IMG/VR virus record: IMGVR_UViG_3300020576_002947
Location: 32,001-96,000 of that record
Reading direction: 5' to 3' (one strand)
DNA from: a virus
Lineage: Duplodnaviria; Caudoviricetes
DNA length: 64,000 nt
In this document: positions 1,078 through 38,983 of the stretch, one piece after another
How the letters are laid out: each line of letters begins with the position of its first letter
How positions within the stretch are numbered: the first letter of the stretch is position 1
The notes under the pieces: generated by a model
The model's database searches: none
Told to the model about the DNA's origin: nothing
What the model saw: only the letters and a program-made list of their open reading frames with translations
Translations under genes and position numbers: made by a program

Positions 1078-4026
1078 ATGGATGTAAATTCACGAATTTT
1101 ATCAGATCTTACAGTATATACTAAATATGCTAATTATATCCCTGAAAAGGATCGAAGGGAAACTTATGACGAAATTGTAACAAGAAATAAAGACTACTGG
1201 CTCTCAAAGTATCCAGATCTTAGTGCTGATATTGAAGAGGCTTATAAGCTAGTTTATGATAGAAAGGTGCTTCCAAGCATGAGGTCTATGCAGTTTGCAG
1301 GACCAGCTATGGACAAGTCACCTGTTAGAGTATTTAACTGTAGCTATTGTCCTATAGATGACTATAGGTCATTCTCTGAAATAATGTTCTTACTTCTCTC
1401 TGGAGTAGGCGTAGGCTTTTCTGTACAACAGCATCATGTTGAGAATTTGCCAAGTCTATCAAATCCAAAGATGTCACGCAAGTTTATTATTGCAGACTCA
1501 ATAGAAGGCTGGAGTGACGCTGTAAAAGCTTTGATGAAGGCTTATATGGTGCCAGGTAAAACTTTGCCTAGGTTTATCTACTCAGAGATTAGGCCAAAGG
1601 GTGCAAAGATCTCTTCGGGTGGATGGGCACCAGGCCCTGAACCTCTTCGACTTGCACTAGAGCATGTAAACTCTATTCTGAGAGCTGCTCTTACAGAGCG
1701 TGGCGATGGTACTAAACTAAAGCCTCTTGAAGCACACGACATTATTTGTATTCTGTCAAATGCTGTCTTAGCTGGTGGAGTGCGAAGAAGTGCCTTAATT
1801 AGCCTATTCTCACCACAGGATAATGAGATGCTTAACTCAAAGCATCGAGATGAGCTTGAAGGAAAGGAGTGGCGCTATCGAGCGAACAACTCAGCAGTTC
1901 TTCTTAGATCAGAAGTTACTGAAGATCAATTTAGGGATATCTGGGCAAGAACCGAAGCTTCTAATAGCGGAGAGCCTGGAATTATCTTTACAAATAATCT
2001 TGACTACGGTGTAAACCCATGCCTTCCTGGTGACGAAACAGTTCTTACATCAGAAGGTATAGTTTATATTAAAGACTTGGTTAGTAAGCCTTTTAATACT
2101 ATTATTAATAACCAAGAGTATACCTCTACAGCAGAAGGGTTTTTCTCTACAGGAACTCAACCTGTTTATGAAATTACTACGAAAGAAGGTTATAAACTTA
2201 GAGCTACTTCCAATCACCTAATTCGAACCTCTCAAAAATCAGGTAGAAAATCAAGAGAAGATAGTTGGGTAAAGTTAGGAGACCTAGGTTCAGGAACAAA
2301 AATTGTACTTAGTAACTCATCTAAAACTAATTGGGGTGGAAAGGGATCGTTTGATGATGGCTGGCTAATGGGTAGTCTTCTCGGAGATGGTACTTTCTAT
2401 AAGAATACTGCTTATCTATGCTACTGGACAGAACACGAGCATCAAGTAGGTATATCAAAAGCTAAATCTGTCCTTAAAACACGTTCGGATTTTGGACAAG
2501 GTTTAGGCTATAAAGGTAAACACCAAAACGGCTCAGTTGATTTATTAGAAAAAGCTATAGAATTCGGTATTCCAGCTTCTAAAACTTTAGATAATACTAA
2601 ATGTGAAATTGGTACATCATCTGAATTCTACAAAGGGTTCCTACAAGGGTGGTTTGATGCTGATGGTACTGTTATTGGAAATCAGCTAAAAGGAGTTTCT
2701 GTGCGCCTTGCATCTAGTATTAAATCCAATCTAGAGATTGCTCAAAGAATGCTTTTAAGACAAGGTATTGTTTCTACTCTTTATCCGCGAAAGAAAGCAG
2801 GGTTTTCTGTTTTACCTGACGGAAAAGGAGGGTCAAAACCCTACGCGACTAAAGCTATGTGGGAATTGGTAATTTCAGGAGAGAACTTAAGAACGTTTTC
2901 TGAGCGGATTGGATTTTCCCATAAAGACAAAGTTGCAAGACTTTCTCAACTTCTTGCAAATTACAAGAGAAATCTTAATCAAGAGGAATATTTAGCCACA
3001 GTAGGAAGTATTGAACTTATTGGCAACTTACCAGTGTATGATTGTACAATACCTGAGATTAGTGCTTTTGAAGCCTCAGGTGTTATAGTACATAATTGTT
3101 CAGAGATTTCGTTGAGACCTTATCAACTATGTAATCTAACAGAGGTTAATGTAAGTAGTCTGGATGACCAGAATGACTTAAATAACCGAGTATGGGCTGC
3201 AGCTTTGATCGGTACTTTACAAGCAAGTCTTACTGACTTTCATTATCTAAGACCAATCTGGCAAAAGACAGTAGAAGAGGATGCTCTTCTAGGTGTTAGT
3301 TTTACTGGTATTGGTAGTGAAGCAGTCTTATCATATGATATAGAAGAAGCAGCTCGAGTAGTTATTGATACTAACACAAGAGTTGCCAAAGCAATCGGTA
3401 TTAACCCCTCAGCAAGAATGACATGTGTCAAACCGAGTGGATCAACCTCAATTGTTATGGGTACTTCTTCAGGTATTCATGCTTGGTATGCTCCTTATTA
3501 TCTACGTCGCGTTAGAATGCGAATGGATGAACCTCTGTCTCAGTACCTGCTTAAGAACCACCCTGAGATTGTAGAAGAGAGCGTTGAAAAGCCAACTGAG
3601 GAAATCATTACAGTTGTTCCTATTAAGGCTCCTGAAGGATCTAAGTTCACACATGAGGACCTTCTTACTTCATATCTTCCAAGATTGAAGAGGATCACAG
3701 AAGACTGGATTTGGCCTACTCACAGGCGTGGCGATAACACTCATAATGTTTCAGCAACGATTCATGTTCCCCAAGGAGAATGGGAATCAGTAGTTGACTG
3801 GTTGTGGGAAAACAGAGATTTTTATCTTGGTGTAACTGCATATCCAGCCTATGATGCTGTGTACAAGCAGCCTCCATTTGAAGAGATTACTGAGGAAGAG
3901 TATAATAACCGAGTTAAGAACTTGAGAGAAGTAGACTTTTCTAAAATCATCGAAACGAAAGATCTTACAGCACTTGAAGAGCAGTCTGCGTGTGCTGGAG
4001 GAGCTTGCGAAATAACACATGTATAA
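1078..4026 (+). CDS. nrdJ: Class II (adenosylcobalamin-dependent) ribonucleotide reductase, intein-containing
   Basis: VLPSMRS, FNCSY, GVGVGFSV, GGVRRSALISL, GEPG, NP|CSEI after intein removal, LCNLTEV, TCVKPSGS, C-terminal CAGGAC. Confidence 0.95.
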   Translation: MDVNSRILSDLTVYTKYANYIPEKDRRETYDEIVTRNKDYWLSKYPDLSADIEEAYKLVYDRKVLPSMRSMQFAGPAMDKSPVRVFNCSYCPIDDYRSFSEIMFLLLSGVGVGFSVQQHHVENLPSLSNPKMSRKFIIADSIEGWSDAVKALMKAYMVPGKTLPRFIYSEIRPKGAKISSGGWAPGPEPLRLALEHVNSILRAALTERGDGTKLKPLEAHDIICILSNAVLAGGVRRSALISLFSPQDNEMLNSKHRDELEGKEWRYRANNSAVLLRSEVTEDQFRDIWARTEASNSGEPGIIFTNNLDYGVNPCLPGDETVLTSEGIVYIKDLVSKPFNTIINNQEYTSTAEGFFSTGTQPVYEITTKEGYKLRATSNHLIRTSQKSGRKSREDSWVKLGDLGSGTKIVLSNSSKTNWGGKGSFDDGWLMGSLLGDGTFYKNTAYLCYWTEHEHQVGISKAKSVLKTRSDFGQGLGYKGKHQNGSVDLLEKAIEFGIPASKTLDNTKCEIGTSSEFYKGFLQGWFDADGTVIGNQLKGVSVRLASSIKSNLEIAQRMLLRQGIVSTLYPRKKAGFSVLPDGKGGSKPYATKAMWELVISGENLRTFSERIGFSHKDKVARLSQLLANYKRNLNQEEYLATVGSIELIGNLPVYDCTIPEISAFEASGVIVHNCSEISLRPYQLCNLTEVNVSSLDDQNDLNNRVWAAALIGTLQASLTDFHYLRPIWQKTVEEDALLGVSFTGIGSEAVLSYDIEEAARVVIDTNTRVAKAIGINPSARMTCVKPSGSTSIVMGTSSGIHAWYAPYYLRRVRMRMDEPLSQYLLKNHPEIVEESVEKPTEEIITVVPIKAPEGSKFTHEDLLTSYLPRLKRITEDWIWPTHRRGDNTHNVSATIHVPQGEWESVVDWLWENRDFYLGVTAYPAYDAVYKQPPFEEITEEEYNNRVKNLREVDFSKIIETKDLTALEEQSACAGGACEITHV
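2020..3096 (+). mobile_element. Intein with LAGLIDADG homing endonuclease in NrdJ (359 aa)
   Basis: Starts CLPGDETV, block B ATSNHLI, LMGSLLGDG and FLQGWFDADG motifs, ends VYDCT...VIVHN followed by Cys. Confidence 0.95.
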
Positions 4027-4114: not shown

Positions 4115-4894
4115 ATGAAAAGTGGACTTGAAACTCTTAAAAATTTGCACAAGACTTGTGATGCTATTTCACATGTTCTCTTAACACCTGATCACGGACT
4201 CTGTGAACATATTTGGGTGAAAACAATTCCTTCATATCCACATGGTTTGAGACATTCTCAAGCTGATATCAAGGATCTTTTTGTTATGATTCAGCCAAAC
4301 ACTGCTGGTTACTCCATGATTGCGATGAGAGATAAGATCTCCCAGAAAGCTTTCGAAGGTGGAACCCATCTAGTTAGTTTGGACGATATTAATACCTTTA
4401 TTACTGAGCTGAAGGCAGCTGAAAAGATCAGCTATACCAAGGACGCTTACGCTATTACTACCTCTGAAGCTGCGAACAGACCAGACCTCTTTAACATCAT
4501 TGCCGGAATTTTTGAGCCTATAACCTTGTCAATAGGGCACGACAAGGATACAGTCTTTGAGATTGAAGTACTTGATGACGGTACTGAAAGGCATCTCAGA
4601 TTCTGTAAGAAGCCCTCTGTCAACATCGGCTCCATCTCAATCAATGGGAACGTAGAGCCCTGCACGCTCACTAAGAACGGCATTACCCTGACATCAGTCT
4701 GGGAGCAGTTCGTTCTTGCTACCAATCTGGAGCTTGACGAGATCAAGGAAATCATGACAAAGCAACAGACTTTGTTTGATACCACATACTCTTCAAAGTC
4801 ATGGTTCCAAGTGCCATCACTCATTCTCAAGGACAACCTTCTTTCTAAGAAGGACAACCTCATTCCGATCATTGGATTGAAGTCCGAAGAATAA
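4115..4894 (+). CDS. Hypothetical protein (first gene of Ubl locus; possible degenerate JAB/MPN-like domain)
   Basis: 259-aa ORF; HIWVKTIPSYPHGLRHSQADI loosely recalls JAB HxH..SxxD but lacks HxH. Confidence 0.55.
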   Translation: MKSGLETLKNLHKTCDAISHVLLTPDHGLCEHIWVKTIPSYPHGLRHSQADIKDLFVMIQPNTAGYSMIAMRDKISQKAFEGGTHLVSLDDINTFITELKAAEKISYTKDAYAITTSEAANRPDLFNIIAGIFEPITLSIGHDKDTVFEIEVLDDGTERHLRFCKKPSVNIGSISINGNVEPCTLTKNGITLTSVWEQFVLATNLELDEIKEIMTKQQTLFDTTYSSKSWFQVPSLILKDNLLSKKDNLIPIIGLKSEE

Positions 4895-4971
4895 AAATAG
4901 AATTGAAGGGTAAGGCCGTCCCTCAAGGACTTATAATCCCTTCTCTTGTTCGGTGAAAACCGGAGACGACT

Positions 4972-5364
4972 ATGCTAGTCAAGTACACTGTTACGGCCCA
5001 GAAGGGCACCGCACGTTCGACATTCAGTGGCGAAACTGAGGTTCAGGCTGCAGGCGACAACGCCGCTGCCCTGTCCGATGAGCTCGCTACTCTCATGAAT
5101 CTCAAGAAGAACTATCCTGGTTCTTGGACTCCTACCAATCAATCCCGCGCCAACGAGCTCATGAAGCTGATCCAGGCCGCCAACAACGGTGGTGGATCAA
5201 TCGAGGCTCAGGCCCGAGACGCCGTCATCAGCACCCTGGTCAACAACCATGGGTTCTCCACCAACGGATCGGCAGAAGCCTGGTACGTTAACCCTCAGCA
5301 CCTCTCCGTTTACAAGAGCGGCGACAGCGTGATGGTTACCGGCGCTGCTTCCTGGGGCCTTTAA
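4972..5364 (+). CDS. Putative ubiquitin-like (beta-grasp) protein with helical insertion
   Basis: Two N-terminal strand-like segments, helix, WYVN strand, C-terminus KSGDSVMVTGAASWG-L like ThiS/MoaD GD.V......GG; GGAG SD; adjacent to E2/E1 genes; strongly C-ending codons. Confidence 0.6.
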   Translation: MLVKYTVTAQKGTARSTFSGETEVQAAGDNAAALSDELATLMNLKKNYPGSWTPTNQSRANELMKLIQAANNGGGSIEAQARDAVISTLVNNHGFSTNGSAEAWYVNPQHLSVYKSGDSVMVTGAASWGL

Positions 5365-5382: not shown

Positions 5383-5420
5383 GCTGTCAGCCCTCAAAAG
5401 CTGACAGCTCGATTTTCTTT
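5383..5420 (+). terminator. Probable intrinsic terminator/attenuator after Ubl gene
   Basis: GCTGTCAGC/GCTGACAGC 9-bp stem, 8-nt loop, followed by TCGATTTTCTTT. Confidence 0.6.
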
Positions 5421-5444: not shown

Positions 5445-5490
5445 GGGGGCAGACCATTGGGGTGGGTCTGCCCCCGCGACGAGTCACCCC
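5445..5490 (+). ncRNA. Candidate H-type pseudoknot cis-RNA element
   Basis: GGGGGCAGACC/GGTCTGCCCCC 11 bp; loop GGGGTG (5459-5464) complementary to downstream CACCCC (5485-5490). Confidence 0.5.
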
Positions 5491-5519: not shown

Positions 5520-6320
5520 ATGCTTCCTGAATTCTCCACAAGGCATAAAGCTATTCCTAGCGGTACTTGGGTTAACCATTACTGCGATTTATCAGATCCT
5601 TCCAAAGAAACCATCAAGTTGATGAAGACTGCGGAGGAATATTTCAATCAATCTATCAAAGATCTTTGGGGTCTCCCAGTTACAAAGTTTGGGTGTCGAG
5701 ACCTTGTCTATTTCTCTGACATTGGCACTGTTGACAGCATGGCTCACATGCTCAACATTAACAATGGTAATCAGGTTGAGATTATCCAGCAGCACCTTGA
5801 CATGACCAAGCCTTGGATTCTTCCTAAGCTTGAGAAGTTTTGGAAAGCTCGTGGTAAGACTGAGCTGGATTTCTTTAACAAGGTTCTCACTACGGGCCAG
5901 TATTCCTCATTTGGCGCACCCCGCCTTATGTGGGCTAATAGATCATTCTATGGCAGTGTTAAGATTGGTGGAAACAATCTTGATCTGTACTTTATGAATA
6001 AGGAAATGTTGCTAGATACCCTGACCTTTTTTAGGACAGACTGGGCAACTGAATTATTCCAAGAGCAGATTAAGCCTTTTGAATGGTTCTATACTGTTAA
6101 CAACGTTCAGTGCGAAAGGACTTGTATTGGCAATGATGGTAATAAGATTCAGAGTCTTCAATCTCCTGCGTCGAGACCTATTGATCTCCAGCTTTGGTTG
6201 GCATCATGGGGCACGAACATGCTGAAGGCTACCTTTAACCATAACAACACAAAAGTTGTCCAGTATAACAGTAATCAGGCTAAGGTCACTGAGGCCTTGC
6301 TTGCAGGACTGAAAAAGTGA
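5520..6320 (+). CDS. Putative prokaryotic E2-like conjugating enzyme (E2 family D / PRTRC-B-like)
   Basis: KPF...NNVQCERTCIGN resembles P..NV....C.G and W...ATFNH resembles the F..S.F[NT]H tail; stop overlaps ThiF start. Confidence 0.55.
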   Translation: MLPEFSTRHKAIPSGTWVNHYCDLSDPSKETIKLMKTAEEYFNQSIKDLWGLPVTKFGCRDLVYFSDIGTVDSMAHMLNINNGNQVEIIQQHLDMTKPWILPKLEKFWKARGKTELDFFNKVLTTGQYSSFGAPRLMWANRSFYGSVKIGGNNLDLYFMNKEMLLDTLTFFRTDWATELFQEQIKPFEWFYTVNNVQCERTCIGNDGNKIQSLQSPASRPIDLQLWLASWGTNMLKATFNHNNTKVVQYNSNQAKVTEALLAGLKK

Positions 6321-7102
6321 GACATGTTATTGTTGTCGGAGCCGGGGCGGTCGGCTCCGCCTTTATCCAAGAGCTTTCAAAGTTCTGTCTTTCAAACCAT
6401 ATCCATACTACAGCCCATCTTTATGATTTTGATGATATTGAAGAACGAAACTGTGCTGCACAGTGCTTCGATGCCAGAGAGATCGGAGGATTAAAAGCTG
6501 TTGTTTGTTCTGAGAAGTTCTCAAACGAATACCTTACTATTACCCCATACAAGGAGTATGTTGACGCTAAAGTTATCGAGTCCTGGAAAACTCTTGATTG
6601 GTATGACAATGATATAGTCATTGTCGATGGTGTTGATAATCTAAAAACAAGAAAGCTGCTTTGGATGGAAGGCTTTATGTGTGACTTCAAGGTCATGCAT
6701 CTTGCCCTATCTGCCGAAGGTTTTGGCCTTGTTAACTGGAACTTCGGCACAGACAATACCTATTGCTATGACTTTAGCATTATCGGTGAGGATGAAATCG
6801 AGAAGAGGGATGAAGCTGCAAAGAACGCTGAGAAGCTTCCTCCTTGTGAATTGAACAAGCATCGTCACATGATGTTTAGTGTTGGTTTATCAGGAACCCA
6901 CTCTCTTATGAACTACTGGGGTATTCCAGACGAATGTCTTATTACCAAGTTGCTGGAAGAGCATGGTGTAAGATTTATCCCTAAACTTCTTTTCTCTTTC
7001 AGAACAACAATGGATCGAATTGAACTACTTTTGGGAGAAGGTCAAGTTATCAATACTGAACCTACAGAGCCAAATGGCGAAGAAGCAGCAAAGGAGAATT
7101 AA
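6317..7102 (+). CDS. ThiF/MoeB/E1-like adenylyltransferase
   Basis: GAGAVG, DFDDIEERNCAAQ, GGLKA, DGVDNLKTR; candidate catalytic Cys in KLPPCEL; GTG start. Confidence 0.9.
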   Translation: MRHVIVVGAGAVGSAFIQELSKFCLSNHIHTTAHLYDFDDIEERNCAAQCFDAREIGGLKAVVCSEKFSNEYLTITPYKEYVDAKVIESWKTLDWYDNDIVIVDGVDNLKTRKLLWMEGFMCDFKVMHLALSAEGFGLVNWNFGTDNTYCYDFSIIGEDEIEKRDEAAKNAEKLPPCELNKHRHMMFSVGLSGTHSLMNYWGIPDECLITKLLEEHGVRFIPKLLFSFRTTMDRIELLLGEGQVINTEPTEPNGEEAAKEN

Positions 7103-7109
7103 GAAAGAG

Positions 7110-9734
7110 ATGTCCCACTGGGCAGGAAACAACAATAATAACTATAACGGGGACAACAGAATCACGGTCGTCGGTCTTGACAAAACTGTTCTTGGTGAAG
7201 TCTTATGCTTTCCTTATGAATTCAACAACATTAAAGCAGTTTTCCAAGAAGAAGACACCAGGGTTCCTGGTGTCTACAAGGAACTCAATGCCAAGCATAT
7301 TGAGATCGTTATGCCTGCTGACTACATCCAGTGGAAAGCAAAGTCAGGCAAGACGGTTGCTATGTGCGCCTTTAATGCTAGCATGGGATTTATCAGCTGC
7401 AATCTGGGCAAACGACTAGATGGAGCTGATGAAGCCTGGTACAAAGCTATTCCTCAGACACATGCTGAGGGATTAAGAGAGGGGGCAACCTTCGATGTTA
7501 TTCAGGAACTGGTCCGACCTTACGGTATCGGCATTTCTGAAATCTGGGTCAGGAGCGACAAGTTCCTTAATCCAGATCTTGACAAGTGGAGGGAGTATCT
7601 CCCAGCTAACCCACTTTTTAACTTTTCTGATCCTAATGGAAGCTCTGCAGGTCTTACTGACAAGGAAGCTCTTGCAAACCCATTAGCTGATATGTTTGTT
7701 GATGAGAAAGATACCTGGAGAATGCACAGGATCAAGGGGCATGAGTCATTGGACGGCCCCCTTATCTATATGCGTGGTGGTGCTTCTGCAGCAGGTGGTG
7801 GTGGTCATGCTACCTATATCGGTCCTAGGTGGTCAGATAAGAACTTCGATTATGCCATTCGTCTTGATCACCTCTCCAATATCAATTACATAAAGGTACC
7901 TGATCCTATTGACACTACGGTGGAAATGGATATCAACTTGCCTGAGTCTTATCTGGTTAAGTCTACCGACGGGAATGTAAAGGTGAAAGACCTATACCCA
8001 AAAGGAGTGACTTATTCCCACAACAATCCTTATCAGAGTGGTGGGACGAACAGCTCGGCACACACGGTTACTATTTCTAGCACCGCGGATGAGGTAATAA
8101 AATTTATGTTTACTGCCGCTCCTGGTGCAGGAGTTTATTCGTCTGACTATAACAAGATGAAGTCTATGTTTTCTCAAGCGTTTAAGGGGGATTTCGAAGC
8201 TGTCTTCAGCATCGATAAACCTAGTTCATATACCAAGGACTTTTTCCCTCTTATAGCATCATTGAATAAAATGTTTCTTCTGCCTACTGATTTAGACCAG
8301 CTTGAGAAAGCATCGGCTATTTTCAGTAAGCAGCCTGCTGATCTAGGAGACTTTAGACTTAGTCCTGAAACCAAGGAAAATCCATACCCAACTCAGATTA
8401 GGGCTTGGATGGACAAGGTTAAGACTACAATTGACAAGAAGGAAATGTCATTGTATGGCTTATGGTCAGTCTATGTCTTCTTTAATATGTACTTCAATGC
8501 TCTTACTGAGGCTAGCATTAAGAAACTTTATGGAGATAAGCTTGGCCTTATGAGAGTTCTCTCAACATGGGCAATAGACTATGCTCTTAAAGTAGAACTT
8601 GCTGCTGGTGTCGAAGCAAAAGTAAAACTCATTACTGTTGAACCAGCAGAAAAGAAAGTTGCTACTATTGCTAAGAAATCAGACTTCCTTGCTATTGGAG
8701 GAATTAAGACTGCGGCTGAATTCAATCAGAGGCTTACACAATTAGCTGGAGAGGGTGTCATTCAGGAACATCTTTCCAAGACTGATATTGCAAGCTTTAC
8801 CATGATTGATGACGCTATCAAGGCTGTTCGAACCAAGTTGCTGAAGAACAAGTCTGCTGATATAGTACCTGAGTGTATTCTTGGTCAAGACTTCGGGGAG
8901 TATGATCTCATCATTTCCAAATGTGTTGAAGGCCGAAGAAAGCTAACTCGTATTGCGAGTGAAAAGCTTTTTGAGTCTATGCAATCTGTTTGGAAAGGCA
9001 AGAATGACATGCCTCCTGCTGACCTGTGTACTTTCCAGGCAGCTATGCTTATTACTAGCTGGTTCTGCAAGCCAGCTTTTGCTCATGCTGTATCCCTGTA
9101 CAGTTTCTTTGCGACAAAAACGCAAAGCACTGCTATTGTGAAGGACTACACTGAAACAAAGCTTGGGCATAACGACATGTTCAAGGCTTTTGTGGGAGTA
9201 CTTCGATCTATCCACACTGCTTACAAGGATGGCACTCTTGGACCTACTCTAGATCCAGGCATCAAGCTGTCCCAAGAAACTGAGCAGGTCCTTAGGATCT
9301 ATATGGTTCCTCCTTCTCCTGAGGTTGCAAAACTTCTTGAAGCTGTTATTCAGAACAGCGAAGAAGGCTATATGAGGTGGGTTGACAAGCAGGTCCTTGC
9401 TGACTGGAAACTCACTGGACCTCAGAACTTTATCGAACTTGATTGCAAGAAAGGAAACTTCTGGAACATTACCAATAGTAGTCCTTCCGATGCGATCTTC
9501 TTCCTTACTCTCTATGCCGCAGTAGTTCTTGCAGTTGATCAGAATGAGAATGAAGAAAGCCTTAGGCTCTTCACCCATAGTCTGTTCACTGAGTACGAGA
9601 ACTGCTTGGTTAGGGATGTCACCGAAGATATTTCTAAGGTTATCTTCATTGAGGATACTATCGAAACAGTAGCCGCCTTCCCCTGGAGTGTCTACGGCTA
9701 CATTACCGCACTTCTCAACAAGAAGGTTCGGTAG
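7110..9734 (+). CDS. Large protein with possible N-terminal papain-like Cys peptidase domain (start may be 7074)
   Basis: About 875 aa; AMCAFNASMG helix-start Cys and GGGGHATYI His-strand pattern; remainder unrecognised. Confidence 0.45.
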   Translation: MSHWAGNNNNNYNGDNRITVVGLDKTVLGEVLCFPYEFNNIKAVFQEEDTRVPGVYKELNAKHIEIVMPADYIQWKAKSGKTVAMCAFNASMGFISCNLGKRLDGADEAWYKAIPQTHAEGLREGATFDVIQELVRPYGIGISEIWVRSDKFLNPDLDKWREYLPANPLFNFSDPNGSSAGLTDKEALANPLADMFVDEKDTWRMHRIKGHESLDGPLIYMRGGASAAGGGGHATYIGPRWSDKNFDYAIRLDHLSNINYIKVPDPIDTTVEMDINLPESYLVKSTDGNVKVKDLYPKGVTYSHNNPYQSGGTNSSAHTVTISSTADEVIKFMFTAAPGAGVYSSDYNKMKSMFSQAFKGDFEAVFSIDKPSSYTKDFFPLIASLNKMFLLPTDLDQLEKASAIFSKQPADLGDFRLSPETKENPYPTQIRAWMDKVKTTIDKKEMSLYGLWSVYVFFNMYFNALTEASIKKLYGDKLGLMRVLSTWAIDYALKVELAAGVEAKVKLITVEPAEKKVATIAKKSDFLAIGGIKTAAEFNQRLTQLAGEGVIQEHLSKTDIASFTMIDDAIKAVRTKLLKNKSADIVPECILGQDFGEYDLIISKCVEGRRKLTRIASEKLFESMQSVWKGKNDMPPADLCTFQAAMLITSWFCKPAFAHAVSLYSFFATKTQSTAIVKDYTETKLGHNDMFKAFVGVLRSIHTAYKDGTLGPTLDPGIKLSQETEQVLRIYMVPPSPEVAKLLEAVIQNSEEGYMRWVDKQVLADWKLTGPQNFIELDCKKGNFWNITNSSPSDAIFFLTLYAAVVLAVDQNENEESLRLFTHSLFTEYENCLVRDVTEDISKVIFIEDTIETVAAFPWSVYGYITALLNKKVR

Positions 9735-10804
9735 TTTAAGAGCTTATCCTTATTTCTTCTTGATACTATAGGGGACAAGAACCTGTAAAGGCGTCCCCTA
9801 TAGTGTTTAAACCATTTGGTGCTGATTTGGGTATTGAATGGAAGATATAGTGGTTCGTACTCTTTAAAGAATTGAAAAGTAGGTACATCACTATTCAAAA
9901 TTAGGGGAATTTTTGCTTGGATGGCCTCCAGTACAATTAAAGAAAAGCTCTCTGAAGTTGAGGGCATTATAAATAAATTACTAATATCTAGCAAAGATCT
10001 TACTGTTTCATGATCTGTAGTGATTTTAAACTGTTCAGAGACCTGAGACATAAAGATCATATTAGAATAACCTTTAATACTAGTTTCAATATCTTTACAG
10101 TTGTCCATTAAAACTAACTGTTGGATAGTAGTTGCATAAGAGTTAGGAACAATTAGAAGAGTCTTCCATTTAAAAGTCTTTTCTATTAAACTTAGTAGAA
10201 AAACTATTTTGTGTATACCTTTGAATTCAGCAATTCTTGTAGGATACACACAAACAAGGTCATATTTATTTAAATCATAATTATCGTACAAACACCTAAC
10301 CATAGGATTTTTAGGTGGTTTAGTAAAATGAGGTAAAACAATAACCTCCTCCTCTGGTACTGAATATCTTTCTGAGATACCCTTCACCATGTAAGGAGTT
10401 AAAGCTACATAGACCGCGTTTGGGTATGGTTGGTAGTTTAGTCCAGTATACTGCTGTCCAGTCAAACTATGACTCCACACAATGAATTTAACACTTGGAT
10501 TAAGGCGCCTTATTGCATAATTAAGGTGCATAAATCCTTCAATAAAAAACACATCATGGATTAAGCAAACTTCAACACCCAAAAAACATTCGGTAAGAGA
10601 CTCCTTTACTCGTTGGTAGTACTCTTCCAATCCCTCTGAAGTAATCCATCTTGGAAACATCCGAACTTCGTTAACCACGCTCTCTTTAAAATCTGAAGTT
10701 GTGATTAAGGTAGCCTCTGGAAAAACATCTAATTGGTTTTCTACGATTTGTGCTACACTATAACTCTTTTCAAACTTAGAGATTGGGCAAAGAATAGCAG
10801 TCAT
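9698..10804 (-). CDS. Glycosyltransferase, GT-B fold (GT4-like)
   Basis: YPTRIAEFKGI, NLFIMPSTSESFSLIVLEAIQAKIPLI GT4 motif; lone - strand gene in region. Confidence 0.88.
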   Translation of the reverse strand: MTAILCPISKFEKSYSVAQIVENQLDVFPEATLITTSDFKESVVNEVRMFPRWITSEGLEEYYQRVKESLTECFLGVEVCLIHDVFFIEGFMHLNYAIRRLNPSVKFIVWSHSLTGQQYTGLNYQPYPNAVYVALTPYMVKGISERYSVPEEEVIVLPHFTKPPKNPMVRCLYDNYDLNKYDLVCVYPTRIAEFKGIHKIVFLLSLIEKTFKWKTLLIVPNSYATTIQQLVLMDNCKDIETSIKGYSNMIFMSQVSEQFKITTDHETVRSLLDISNLFIMPSTSESFSLIVLEAIQAKIPLILNSDVPTFQFFKEYEPLYLPFNTQISTKWFKHYRGRLYRFLSPIVSRRNKDKLLNYRTFLLRSAVM

Positions 10805-10824
10805 ACTGTTAATGTCGTACAGAA

Positions 10825-11931
10825 ATGGAACAATACCTTTCAACAAACAGAATTAAAGGGGATATCCCAACTATTATAGAATTAGGGGGAGAAGAAATTG
10901 AAATTCCTTCGACTCTTCAAAAGAATCTTTCTACTGTATCTTTAGACAGCAAGAACGCAGTAGTACGAAGTACTTTTATTTCTCCTGTTCTTGGAAGTAT
11001 ATTTAACTCCAGCAGGTTTGAAGATCCTGACATTAAGTTTGCTGAACTGAACAAAGCTCTGAAACTTTTAGACGAGTTAATTAGTAACTTTGTAAAAGAA
11101 TCTATTCTCAAGAGATCTCATAATCTAGGATTCAGTGCCTTTGCTCAGTCACATGAGAATGTAGGCGTTGATGAGGTAATGATATCTTCTGAGAGTTTTA
11201 AAGAACTCGTTAGATATAACAGCAATTGGTCTAAGTGTAGAAAAGTTGTTGTAGTTCGGTATCCTAATCTAGGGCCACAAACTACTATCGAGCTTAATCT
11301 GGTTATCCAGCAATCTAACAGACCTGGTGGAGAAATCAAATCAAAGTTAGGTTGCGTTTGGCTTAATCAAGCTGTTCTGAAGAACTGTCTTGAAGGCGAC
11401 GCAGATGGTGATATGATCTTTTGTAGCTTCAGTAAAAAAGGAACTCCTCTAATCCAAGACGTTCCTTTAGAAAGAAGCCAAGGTTCAATCACAGATAGCG
11501 ATATTAAACTTCTTATTAAAAAGTCTTTGGTAAACAAGGATCTTAATGAAGCAGAATACCTTGCTGCTCAGATTGATCATGTACCAATTGACAAAGCTAC
11601 CTATATTATTAGGTGGCTACTGTACCTTAAATCTCTTCAGTACACTAATGAATATCAGCCATTGAACAAAGCTTGGGAGGATATTGCTCCTGAAGCAATC
11701 AAGTTAGTTGAATTTGTCATGGACATTAGAAAAGGCGATTTTTCTAAAGAAGAGATTAAACAAAAGCTTGAATATATTGATAAAGTTTATCTTAATATTC
11801 AGATTCAGAAGTCTAAAGGACATTGGTTTGCAAAGACCGTTACCTCAGGAAAAATTCAGGACATTGAAAAGTTTCTTGAAACATTCCCTACTTCTCAATC
11901 CTACTTAGATTATTGTCAGAGAATAGAATAA
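10825..11931 (+). CDS. Minimal RNA polymerase beta'-like subunit (catalytic double-psi barrel)
   Basis: VVVVRYPNL (RxP motif) followed by LEGDADGDMI (DxDGD metal-binding loop). Confidence 0.72.
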   Translation: MEQYLSTNRIKGDIPTIIELGGEEIEIPSTLQKNLSTVSLDSKNAVVRSTFISPVLGSIFNSSRFEDPDIKFAELNKALKLLDELISNFVKESILKRSHNLGFSAFAQSHENVGVDEVMISSESFKELVRYNSNWSKCRKVVVVRYPNLGPQTTIELNLVIQQSNRPGGEIKSKLGCVWLNQAVLKNCLEGDADGDMIFCSFSKKGTPLIQDVPLERSQGSITDSDIKLLIKKSLVNKDLNEAEYLAAQIDHVPIDKATYIIRWLLYLKSLQYTNEYQPLNKAWEDIAPEAIKLVEFVMDIRKGDFSKEEIKQKLEYIDKVYLNIQIQKSKGHWFAKTVTSGKIQDIEKFLETFPTSQSYLDYCQRIE

Positions 11932-36109: not shown

Positions 36110-36267
36110 TGGTACCATCCCCTTGTATTAAAAAGTGCATACTTGATAAGGGCGAAGTATGCACTGGCTGCTTTAGAACATTATTTGAGATTGTTAAATG
36201 GTCCTATTATAGTGACGAAGAAAAACAATCGGTATTAGATAGAATACAAAAGAGCAAAGAAGAATGA
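36109..36267 (+). CDS. DUF1289-family small Cys-rich (Fe-S/Zn) protein (52 aa, not in ORF track)
   Basis: SPCIKKC......CTGCFRT..EI..W; TAATG and ATGA overlaps with neighbours. Confidence 0.85.
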   Translation: MVPSPCIKKCILDKGEVCTGCFRTLFEIVKWSYYSDEEKQSVLDRIQKSKEE

Positions 36268-37733
36268 GTTTTACTGATAATGATCTTGACTTTTATATCA
36301 AGACTGAGAGAAACGTATTAATTAGAGGACCTAAAGGGGTTGGTAAAACCCATAAGATTTTGCAGGCTTTTAAAAGAGCTGGCTTAAATTATCTTTACTT
36401 TTCAGCAGCTACTATGGACCCATGGGTTGACTTCATTGGGGTACCAAAAGAAGCAACCGATGAAGATGGGAACACTTATCTTGACCTTGTAAGACCTAAG
36501 CAGTTTGCTAAGGATGAAGTGCAAGCTATATTCCTGGACGAGTTCAATAGAGCACCTAAGAAAGTAAGGAATGCTGTTATGGAGTTATTACAGTTTAAGT
36601 CGATTAATGGATTTAAGTTTAATAACTTAAAGATCATTTGGACTGCTGTTAACCCTAAGGAAGAAGGTGAGGAACAGTACGATGTTGAAGATCTAGATCC
36701 CGCACAGGCTGATAGATTTGAGATCCAGCTTACTGTACCCTATACCTTAAACATTCCCTACTTTACTGAAAAGTACGGTAAGGACACTGCCCTAACTGCC
36801 TCTAACTGGTGGAATGGTCTTAATGAGAAACAAAGACAAGAAGTTTCCCCTAGAAGACTTGATTATGCTTTGAGTGTATGGAGCGATGGTGGGAAGCTAG
36901 AGCATGTTTTGACAAGTACAAGTGATCCTAAGAAACTATCGAAAATGCTTAGTCAGAAGAGCCTCTTTGAAACAATCGAAAAGTTTGTTACAGAAGGTAA
37001 ACTAGAAGCATTGAAAGGAGTGCTTAGTGATCCTAACAACGTAGCATTTGTCAAATCATTTATTCTTAGCAACAAGGACCTAAAGGTTAAGTACACAGGG
37101 ATTTATTGCATGCCTTATGAAACACAGCACTCAATTGTTTCAGGTATGTCCAATACTCAATACACAGAATTTCTAAAAGTACTTGAGAATCTACCTCTTG
37201 ATAAGGAAATCCAGAATATTGTTTATTATACTAAAGACAAGAACTTAGATCTAACAACCAAGCTGTTAGACCAACAAGGTTATATTCCTCCAGCTATACT
37301 AAAGCCTGTTCTTACTCCATGTAGGGGAGATGATTTACAAAGTACTAACTCTAGAAGAGCTTATCTAGGGATTTTAAATGATAATTTTAATACCTTAATT
37401 CCTAGCTCTGAGACTCTTGACCATTGGGATCTAAAAACAGCTGTTCCATTAAATGAAGAGTTGTCATCTATATGTGAGTTTCTTGTACACTACCTAGTGG
37501 TAGCAAGAAGAAGTCATGCCGGCACTGTTAAAGGTGTATTAGGAACTGACAAAACAATTCGGTTGAGGAGAGTACAGGACTTGTTTAAACCAAAAGCTAA
37601 GTATGCTGCCACACTAATTAGCGATCTTAATATTAAAAAGGAAATGTATTACTCAGCTAAAGGTAAGTACTATAATTTCTTTCCTTACACAATTGATGCA
37701 GCTTACTTCTGGAGATCAGATTGGAAGGTCTAA
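36264..37733 (+). CDS. MoxR/dynein-related AAA+ ATPase
   Basis: GPKGVGKT, FLDEFNRA, AVNP, LDPAQADRF, SPRRL. Confidence 0.9.
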   Translation: MSFTDNDLDFYIKTERNVLIRGPKGVGKTHKILQAFKRAGLNYLYFSAATMDPWVDFIGVPKEATDEDGNTYLDLVRPKQFAKDEVQAIFLDEFNRAPKKVRNAVMELLQFKSINGFKFNNLKIIWTAVNPKEEGEEQYDVEDLDPAQADRFEIQLTVPYTLNIPYFTEKYGKDTALTASNWWNGLNEKQRQEVSPRRLDYALSVWSDGGKLEHVLTSTSDPKKLSKMLSQKSLFETIEKFVTEGKLEALKGVLSDPNNVAFVKSFILSNKDLKVKYTGIYCMPYETQHSIVSGMSNTQYTEFLKVLENLPLDKEIQNIVYYTKDKNLDLTTKLLDQQGYIPPAILKPVLTPCRGDDLQSTNSRRAYLGILNDNFNTLIPSSETLDHWDLKTAVPLNEELSSICEFLVHYLVVARRSHAGTVKGVLGTDKTIRLRRVQDLFKPKAKYAATLISDLNIKKEMYYSAKGKYYNFFPYTIDAAYFWRSDWKV

Positions 37734-38983
37734 ACCACGAAGACTATTATACAATGTTAAATAGGCTTGAAGATTATCATGACCTATTTGCATCGTTGTG
37801 GGCTGTAGGCGAGCCTTTATTTACTGATAACTCTAGCGTACCAACAGCTAGAGTTATCAAGTATAAAGACTCTGAGAATATTTCATTACAAATTAATAAG
37901 TCTTACTGGGAATCATTAGATGATTATACCAGGACTTTTTTAATTAGCCATGAGATGCTGCATGTATATCTAAAGCACTTAGTCTTTGGAAAGGAAGATG
38001 ATATTCCAGTACTGACCAACATAGCTATGGACATATCTATTAATCATATGTTATGCAACTCTTTTGGTTTTACCAAGGAGCTTTTGTGTAACTTTGAGGA
38101 GCTTTGCTGGGTAGAGAAATTTTTCCCAGGAGAACAAATAGATAATAATCTAAGTTGGAGGACTTACTATAATCTCTTACTAGAAAAGCTTGGTATAGAT
38201 CCACAAGGTATGCCAACTTATATTCTTCTTGGTAACCATGGTGAAGGGGAAGGTACTGGTGAGAGTTCTGATCAAGGCCAGGGTAAGCAGGAAGAGGACC
38301 CTGAAGGACTAGAGGATATTATTAATGGAATAATGGGGGACTGTTTTGAAACAGATCCTACAGACATTGAATCATTTAGTCAACAAGCAGGTACTACTGC
38401 CGGAAATCTAGCTATTACTGTAAAAGTAGAAGTTAAGAAGAAGCGGAAGTGGGAAACTGTAATTAGTGACTTCGTCAGAAGAGCTGTAAAAGAAACTACT
38501 AATGAGCAGTGGTCCAGAAAAGCTAGAAGAAATAACTTACTTACAAGTGACTTGTTTCTTCCTAGTGATCAGGAAGTTGAAGAGTATGATAAGGATAAGA
38601 TCGAATTATGGTTCTATCAAGATACCTCAGGTTCTTGTTATAGTCTAGCTGAAAGGTTCTTTAAAGCAGCCAGAAGTATTCCTGAAGATAAGTTTATAAT
38701 CAGAACTTTTTGTTTTGACACGAGAGTTTATGATGTAGATTTAAAGACTGGAAAGCTATTTGGATTTGGTGGTACATACTTCCATATTCTTGAACAGCAT
38801 GTTCAGCAGAAGATTAAAGAATATAAAGTTTCTTACCCAAAGGCAATCTTTGTAGTTACCGACGGATACGGGAGTGCTATTAAACCCGAAAAACCAAAAG
38901 CTTGGCATTGGTTTTTATCAACAAATGAAACATACTGTATTGATAAAGACTGTTTTATACATTATCTGAAGGACTTTGAATGA
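37721..38983 (+). CDS. HExxH metallopeptidase-like + VWA domain protein (DUF2201-like)
   Basis: HEMLH, NIAMD..IN, DTSGS MIDAS, GGT, VTDG. Confidence 0.88.
   Translation: MEGLNHEDYYTMLNRLEDYHDLFASLWAVGEPLFTDNSSVPTARVIKYKDSENISLQINKSYWESLDDYTRTFLISHEMLHVYLKHLVFGKEDDIPVLTNIAMDISINHMLCNSFGFTKELLCNFEELCWVEKFFPGEQIDNNLSWRTYYNLLLEKLGIDPQGMPTYILLGNHGEGEGTGESSDQGQGKQEEDPEGLEDIINGIMGDCFETDPTDIESFSQQAGTTAGNLAITVKVEVKKKRKWETVISDFVRRAVKETTNEQWSRKARRNNLLTSDLFLPSDQEVEEYDKDKIELWFYQDTSGSCYSLAERFFKAARSIPEDKFIIRTFCFDTRVYDVDLKTGKLFGFGGTYFHILEQHVQQKIKEYKVSYPKAIFVVTDGYGSAIKPEKPKAWHWFLSTNETYCIDKDCFIHYLKDFE

Follow-up and report, generated by a model that had tools for sequence, protein, structure and literature searches.

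What is a small protein with an invariant Trp-Gly end doing on a large phage, ahead of a set of genes that includes one for an E1-type adenylating enzyme? The window analysed here, a stretch of 64,000 nucleotides, belongs to a phage record of 239,691 bases that is 94% complete, has a GC content of 0.38, encodes 12 tRNAs and has a gene for the major head protein. At 4972-5364 on the plus strand it holds an ORF of 130 residues with an ATG start, a TAA stop and the C-terminus A-S-W-G-L; the gene is present as a single copy in the 239.7-kb genome and is followed, on the same strand, by genes for 266, 261 and 874 residues. Arguing by analogy with characterised systems, we consider it reasonably probable that the 130-residue protein is the covalent tag of a phage-encoded ubiquitin-like (Ubl) conjugation kit: a protein that would be trimmed, activated by the E1, passed to Cys198 of the 266-residue protein, joined to lysines and later removed. 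The cassette is composed as follows:

4962..4965, plus strand: GGAG Shine-Dalgarno-like site, 6 nt ahead of the ATG (read from the sequence)
4972..5364, plus strand: putative Ubl (tag) gene, 130 aa (ORF, predicted fold, alignment of homologs)
5520..6320, plus strand: 266-aa Cys protein, candidate divergent E2-like carrier, with Cys198 at 6111-6113 (alignment, model)
6317..7102, plus strand: minimal ThiF/E1 adenylating enzyme, 261 aa, with Cys177 at 6845-6847 (Pfam, alignment)
7110..9734, plus strand: 874-aa protein, candidate papain-type maturase/deconjugase (invariant Cys86 and His233)

The tag and the 266- and 874-residue proteins gave no family match in Pfam, NCBIfam, PHROGs or PADLOC, and single-protein homolog searches with the tag returned only the tag itself. 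A first relative (28% identity, E 5e-4), the sole return from 1.8 billion representatives searched, lies on a contig where three genes are arranged in the order seen in the window. A profile built from the E1s of the window and of this contig recovered seven closer E1s, the contigs of which were used together with two IMG/VR contigs (212 and 235 kb), and the locus set comprises nine distinct loci: the window, L001, L039, L040, L041, L042, L043, L047 and L060. All nine encode a tag homolog of 130-167 residues, and the eight found besides the window's own are merely 17-30% identical to it. The carriers are a group of uncultured large phages: no member of the family occurs among the cultured-phage records of the searched collection, and a strict E1 motif scan of GTDB genomes, with a pattern that misses some members, gave 12 matches, none of which scored on an E1 profile close to the members of the family.

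Several features surround the cassette in the window. A ribonucleotide reductase gene with an apparent intein bearing homing-endonuclease motifs (from a reading of the translation only) lies before it at 1078-4026. Just upstream of the tag, a 259-residue gene (4115-4894) has a GC3 of 0.45, raised like that of the cassette; it has no family match and no clear counterpart in the other loci, and was rejected as a paralog of the carrier (E 0.14). A glycosyltransferase family 4 gene on the opposite strand adjoins the cassette end both here (9698-10846, minus strand) and in L039 (5246-6397, minus strand).

The most telling part of the tag is its tail:

5353..5364, plus strand: Trp128-Gly129-Leu130-stop, the invariant Trp-Gly plus a one-residue extension (homolog alignment)

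The initial annotation of this DNA, made from the sequence alone, described an ending of WG-L rather than GG, and this is what the homologs bear out: Trp-Gly is invariant in all nine tag proteins. The annotation had also staked its interpretation on conservation of the C-terminal Gly, which proved invariant and is the last residue in five of the nine (in L039, L041, L043, L047 and L060 the stop follows it directly); the other four carry a single further residue, namely Leu in the window, Phe in L001 and L040, and Asp in L042. V122, W128 and G129 are invariant and the stretch joining them aligns without gaps, which fixes a spacing of seven residues from V122 to the terminal Gly, and the last strand together with the tail is the most conserved segment of the protein (mean column identity 0.64, against 0.41-0.48 elsewhere). 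An ending of WG or WG-x is shared by only two of the 313 proteins of the genome. The residue after the Gly is scattered across both clades of the tag tree, and has thus been gained or lost more than once: the pattern expected of an extension that can be removed. Because the tag stop is TAA, its reading by the CUA tRNA of the phage was rejected. The CUA-anticodon tRNA itself is encoded at G000:C1:23986-24058, and in this genome TAG still serves as a stop codon, including that of the large gene of the cassette (window 9734).

What kind of protein carries this tail? A fold was predicted with AlphaFold2 from the single tag sequence; the best model has a mean pLDDT of 81, with two of the five models confident and three low. 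DSSP assigns strands at 2-11, 14-23, 104-106 (short), 112-116 and 119-128, and helices at 27-47, 54-71 and 77-93, the first two of which lie between strand 2 and the third, the core helix. The elements of the model, projected onto the DNA, are:

4972..5040, plus strand: beta-grasp strands 1 and 2, residues 1-23 (DSSP on the model)
5041..5199, plus strand: helical-hairpin insertion, residues 24-76 (model, alignment)
5200..5250, plus strand: core helix, residues 77-93, with V85 and L89 invariant (model, alignment)
5305..5352, plus strand: C-terminal strand pair, residues 112-127, with V122 invariant and G124 in eight of nine (model, alignment)

The last strand reaches Trp128 in the model, so that little free tail is left. 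An Ala/Asn-rich helical hairpin between strand 2 and the core helix, as annotated initially, is thus recovered: the insertion comprises 53 residues, of which 9 are Ala and 7 Asn. All nine homologs have an insertion at this position that is about as long or longer, the longer ones being those of a six-member clade. It is the least conserved segment of the protein (mean column identity 0.41), and the hydrophobic moments of its helices are low, about 0.2. The hydrophobic positions of the core are conserved across the 130-167-residue homologs. In nearly all beta-grasp lineages surveyed the linker from strand 2 to the helix is empty (PMC1949818).

Re-alignment of Foldseek candidates to the model gave matches that run from end to end and leave out the hairpin: protein G B1 (Z 6.5, rmsd 2.2 Å, 56 of 56 residues over model residues 1-126), protein L (Z 6.2, 63 of 65 residues) and a staphylococcal SSL domain (Z 6.0, 76 residues aligned). 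These scores of 6-6.5 are level with those of trivial helical-hairpin matches. Atlas shape searches with two independent models repeatedly drew RnfH, PB1, TGS and DUF4430 clusters, at a whole-chain TM of about 0.4. Foldseek against PDB and BFVD gave nothing significant; both it and a wide VIA search were dominated by the hairpin, with no Ubl among the matches listed. Sequence methods gave no link to ThiS, MoaD or any other Ubl family; the label 'Ubl' rests on predicted fold, tail and gene context. We take the tag to be, by prediction and with moderate scores, a beta-grasp core with a 53-residue insertion before the core helix. The original comparison with ThiS and MoaD calls for a correction as to the modelled core. 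ThiS, MoaD and ubiquitin are five-stranded, whereas the best matches of the tag core are four-stranded and the last two strands of its single-sequence model are joined by a short turn; the four-stranded beta-grasp domains described so far are binding modules and not conjugated tags (PMC1949818).

A tag would be expected to outnumber the enzymes that handle it, and the gene was annotated from the outset as the most GC-rich in the window, with C-ending codons. Both points hold. Its GC content is 0.57 and its GC3s 0.66, the highest among window ORFs (the next highest value is 0.45 for either measure) and second among the 313 ORFs of the 239.7-kb genome (mean 0.27, sd 0.09). C-ending codons account for 17 of its 20 Phe, Tyr, Asn and Ile codons; for the three genes that follow it the figure is 133 of 282 (Fisher p 0.0008). 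Amino-acid composition accounts for some of the high GC (GC2 0.49, Ala/Gly rich). Scored against a reference set made of the phage's own major head gene and a GC3-rich gene block, the tag ranks third of 313 (z 3.6), above the major head gene itself; the carrier, protease candidate and E1 rank 18, 23 and 28. The GC3 of the tag exceeds that of its neighbours in every one of the nine loci, over backgrounds of 0.29 to 0.65 GC, and the excess of C-ending codons is significant in five of them (p under 0.004) and absent in L047.

Signals flanking the gene point the same way. The GGAG site reported initially lies at 4962-4965, and purine-rich GGA sites are also found ahead of most homologs' starts. 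Downstream are two hairpins:

5383..5408, plus strand: terminator-like hairpin just past the tag stop, with a T-rich tail, z -2.1 to -2.6 (folding versus shuffles)
5445..5475, plus strand: second hairpin, 11 bp, GC-rich, in the spacer ahead of the next gene

A strong hairpin follows the tag stop in seven of the nine loci (z -2.6 to -6.1), whereas in the genome as a whole 14% of genes have one; after E1 it is not regularly present. The claim that the gene is bracketed by hairpins thus survives on the 3′ side (5383-5408), whereas the 5′ structure is weak (z -1.9, with 10 of 200 shuffles equally good).

The initial annotation had raised a GC-rich donor as another source of the codon bias. We rejected a recent gain of this kind: at fourfold-degenerate sites in the window C rises (0.45 vs 0.20) and G stays flat (0.11 vs 0.09), the codon preference is phage-like, GC3 is raised in all nine loci, and the Ubl and E1 trees have one well-supported split in common, on long branches. 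Together, codon bias, 3′ hairpins and the common split favour selection for abundance over recent transfer, which is unlikely. The tag protein is thus probably abundant, and its codons and conserved 3′ hairpin suggest an excess over E1 and E2. The same C-ending preference, with GC3 up to 0.70, marks a run of short plus-strand genes at G000:C1:196416-204619 (L063), possibly an early region; the preference of this block may reflect the preferred codons of the host.

The enzymes of the cassette differ in how clearly they can be assigned. The E1 is recognised by Pfam ThiF (8.8e-12), and its best solved relatives are the adenylation domains of ubiquitin E1s (3e-12); ATG7 is absent among the 60 best, and MccB and PaaA rank low. 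It is present in all nine loci (238-275 residues), with intact ATP-binding motifs and with G8, G10, G13, D37, R44, N45, K60, D104 and C177 invariant. Cys177, which sits in P-C-E-L-N-x-x-R, is the sole invariant Cys, and conserved paired zinc cysteines are lacking. A complex prediction of E1 with the tag, made from two-row alignments, scored 0.01 and weighs on neither side.

The carrier family is likewise found in all nine loci, in one to three copies each, and Cys198 is the only invariant column among 12 candidates. Its model (pLDDT 68) runs helix, sheet, Cys loop and helices, in that order, and matches Ctf19-Mcm21 (Z 5.5-5.7), FANCL (Z 4.4-4.7) and residues 7-146 of Cap2 (Z 4.1). Because the best Z is under 6, and RWD/UBC-like chains are mixed with unrelated folds among the top matches, an E2 identity is plausible but unproven. 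Of the E1 and E2 neighbours presumed at the outset, then, the E1 is identified and the E2 fold is weakly supported (Z 4-5.7). Two or three carrier paralogs accompany a single tag and E1 in L042 (2207-4691), L043 (3567-7968), L041 (5063-7993) and G002; such extra copies could widen the target range without E3s.

The 874-residue protein has a conserved domain at about residues 70-265, some 200 shared residues, in which Cys86 and His233 are invariant in six aligned candidates; the profile finds two further loci, and the protein is present in all eight loci that extend far enough. It has no peptidase family match, and the Cys/His dyad with its spacing points to a papain-type protease. A search for Prok-JAB, the control for which was positive in 8 of 14 genomes, gave no match in three phage records 91-95% complete, although a very divergent JAB could escape it. 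At 36264-38983 of the window, 27 kb downstream of the cassette, an AAA gene is accompanied by one for a putative metallopeptidase (DUF2201), and DUF2201 genes occur within 5-7 kb of the cassette at L042:12737-13428 and L043:15886-16828; a role as unfoldase or processing partner is possible.

How might these parts work together? Each chemical step below is drawn from analogy with BilA, which is cut between Gly97 and Ala98 ahead of conjugation (PMC10557695), and with ATG8, in which a conserved aromatic residue before the Gly opens the papain-like protease ATG4, which both matures and deconjugates it (PMC12005411). The tag would be made in excess, through preferred codons and either a leaky terminator or a stabilising hairpin past the stop. 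The Cys/His protein would cut off Leu130, with Trp128 conferring specificity in the way that Phe119 of LC3 does for ATG4; the E1 would adenylate Gly129 and then hold it as a thioester on Cys177. From there the tag would move to Cys198 of the 266-residue protein and finally to lysines on proteins of the phage or the host, with no separate E3. The helical hairpin, for which oligomerisation or target binding was suggested initially, would most likely lend the conjugates an extra surface for binding or self-assembly. Candidate purposes are the shielding of phage proteins and the disabling of host defences or of competing phages. The Cys/His protein would later strip the tag from its targets, which would account for the retention of the protease in loci whose tag has Gly as its last residue.

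In its presumed working the kit resembles Ubl systems of the Bil and ATG8 types. Bil (BilABCD; PMC10557695, PMC11601603) encodes a Ubl, an E2-like Cys protein, a Cys E1 and a deconjugase as separate genes in one operon, to which the tag, the carrier candidate, the E1 and the protease candidate would correspond, and the BilA of E. aridi, like the window's tag, has one residue past the Gly, which in BilA is trimmed first. Bil, in contrast, defends bacteria against phages and has a JAB metallopeptidase, whereas the present kit is found on phages, with no Prok-JAB detected in three near-complete records. The Bil E1 is large, with an inactive and an active adenylation domain and bound zinc, whereas that of the phages is about 250 residues without paired zinc cysteines and matches BilD weakly (3e-4), in the adenylation part only. 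As described, the Ubls of Bil and Bub vary in domain number and N-terminal additions, not by an internal helical hairpin and a Trp-Gly end as here. Bub, as described (PMC11601596), has an E1 without a catalytic Cys, oxyester intermediates, fused Ubl-E2 or E2-E1 proteins and a serine protease; the phage kit, unlike it, has separate genes, and its E1, carrier and protease candidate each keep an invariant Cys. The PRTRC cassette, operon class 6 of Iyer, Burroughs and Aravind 2006 (PMC1779556), resembles the kit in its stand-alone ThiF-size E1, small Gly-ended Ubl and association with mobile elements, and its E2-like partner would correspond to the carrier candidate, but PRTRC_ThiF scores 27.4 bits against the phage E1 (cut-off 144.75). 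Further differences are that no JAB was found in the three phage records searched, that its carrier has no Prok-E2 match, and that tag, carrier and protease candidate match nothing in Pfam or NCBIfam.

Outside conjugation, ThiS and MoaD with ThiF and MoeB likewise place a beta-grasp protein ending in Gly beside a ThiF-family adenylase. They are sulfur carriers of 66-81 residues with a Gly-Gly tail, in contrast to Trp-Gly in nine of nine, and with five strands, where the model of the tag suggests four; the phage E1 falls far below the ThiF and MoeB cut-offs and comes with additional Cys partners. Protein G B1 and protein L, the best end-to-end matches of the modelled core, are non-conjugated binding domains of secreted proteins, without insertion or reactive tail.

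The tail itself looks more like that of ATG8 than like those of known bacterial tags. In ATG8/LC3 a single Gly follows an aromatic residue (Phe119-Gly120 in LC3), as in the invariant W128-G129, and both ATG8/LC3 (with ATG4, ATG7 and ATG3) and UFM1/UBA5 combine a short extension with a minimal ThiF-like E1 that has its Cys in the crossover region. ATG4 is a papain-like Cys protease that trims and deconjugates, and the candidate here, known from its invariant Cys and His and their spacing, may correspond to it. The final residues are Trp-Gly in human ATG12 and Tyr-Gly-Leu in GABARAP. There are also differences: ATG8 adds its helices N-terminally to a five-stranded fold, whereas the tag has them inside a modelled four-stranded core; and the acceptor of ATG8 is a lipid, whereas lysines are the presumed acceptors here. 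Profiles of tag, carrier and protease gave no sequence match to ATG8/12, ATG7, ATG3/10 or ATG4 at E up to 10, and none of these appears among the fold matches listed. The likeness is best read as convergence.

Other uses of the same genes must be weighed. The cascade could be as proposed but its acceptor a membrane lipid amine (phosphatidylethanolamine, as for ATG8), the abundant tag coating or shaping a membrane during infection through its hairpin. The aromatic-Gly-(x) tail, the Cys/His candidate in place of a JAB and the minimal E1 all parallel the ATG8 system, the expression signature would suit a coat, and a phage PspA/IM30 (ESCRT-III-like) gene lies about 3 kb upstream of the cassette at L047:3569-4321 (Pfam 2e-16). 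We nevertheless regard a lipid acceptor as improbable: that linkage is seen in one locus only, the hydrophobic moments of the insertion helices are low (about 0.2), and neither the sequence searches nor the fold matches listed connect the kit to ATG8, ATG3, ATG4 or ATG7. Equally small odds attach, in our judgement, to a broader version, an ATG8-like system that arose independently of eukaryotes, in which large amounts of a four-stranded tag with papain-type recycling are joined to a membrane lipid, or else to one scaffold, and the tag polymerises through its hairpin to coat a phage compartment. A carrier of sulfur or acyl groups in the manner of ThiS, MoaD or Urm1, with the Cys proteins relaying sulfur and the product modifying tRNA, DNA or a metabolite, would draw on the facts that such systems are built around a separate E1 of ThiF size and a beta-grasp protein ending in Gly, that the phage has 12 tRNA genes, and that a glycosyltransferase adjoins the cassette in two loci. 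It too seems unlikely to us, since such a carrier is catalytic and need not outnumber its enzymes, the tail is not Gly-Gly, the Cys/His protease candidate persists where trimming is unneeded, and the annotated neighbours include no rhodanese, desulfurase or cofactor-synthesis gene.

The tag may instead act mainly without covalent attachment: it could be structural, or an abundant protein that serves as a decoy for, or inhibits, the Ubl-type defences of the host (Bil, CBASS Cap2), and the enzymes would then have a regulatory role only. That its expression signature exceeds even the major head gene's, and that known four-stranded beta-grasp domains are binding modules, would fit; a decoy would nonetheless be expected to copy host tails and to do without the E1 with a catalytic Cys, the Cys carrier and the protease that almost all loci encode, and Ubl and E1 are co-inherited; we think this reading has little chance of being correct. 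Least credible of all, by a little, is that no beta-grasp protein is involved and the E1 substrate is some other small protein (for example leader-bearing, like the substrates of MccB or PaaA) that is released after modification of its C-terminus. The want of a sequence match to Ubls, the lack of any significant Foldseek hit and the three low-confidence models out of five agree with this, but AlphaFold2 and Atlas models both draw several beta-grasp families, the hydrophobic core positions are kept across homologs, and MccB and PaaA are distant among the relatives of the E1.

We found no description of a complete phage-encoded Ubl conjugation kit in the literature searched, the coverage of which was incomplete. 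Prokaryotic Ubl conjugation has been characterised on the side of bacterial defence (Bil, Bub, Cap2), with JAB or serine deconjugases. If the 130-residue protein is indeed a covalent tag, the Trp-Gly family would add a phage-side system with a new tag end, an internal hairpin and a Cys/His protease candidate replacing the JAB, and might supply the first case of a conjugated tag with a four-stranded beta-grasp core. With four small genes and nine natural variants, five of which are already 'mature', reconstitution should be easy, and it would show whether the tail logic of ATG8 has two origins and which targets phages modify in the course of infection.

Phage-borne Ubl genes of another type were also encountered. 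In a separate group of phage contigs of about 110-180 kb (distant, crAss-like in size), ThiF adjoins a Ubl-like ORF of 70-90 residues that ends in K-G-N plus zero to two residues; profile comparison detected no similarity between the Trp-Gly tag and these short proteins. The kit described here, with its Trp-Gly end, insertion and Cys-protease candidate, appears to be a separate variant of phage-borne Ubl kit. The K-G-N ORF lies just after ThiF in L002-L006, L009-L021, L024, L026 and L032, and is also found in L023 and L025.
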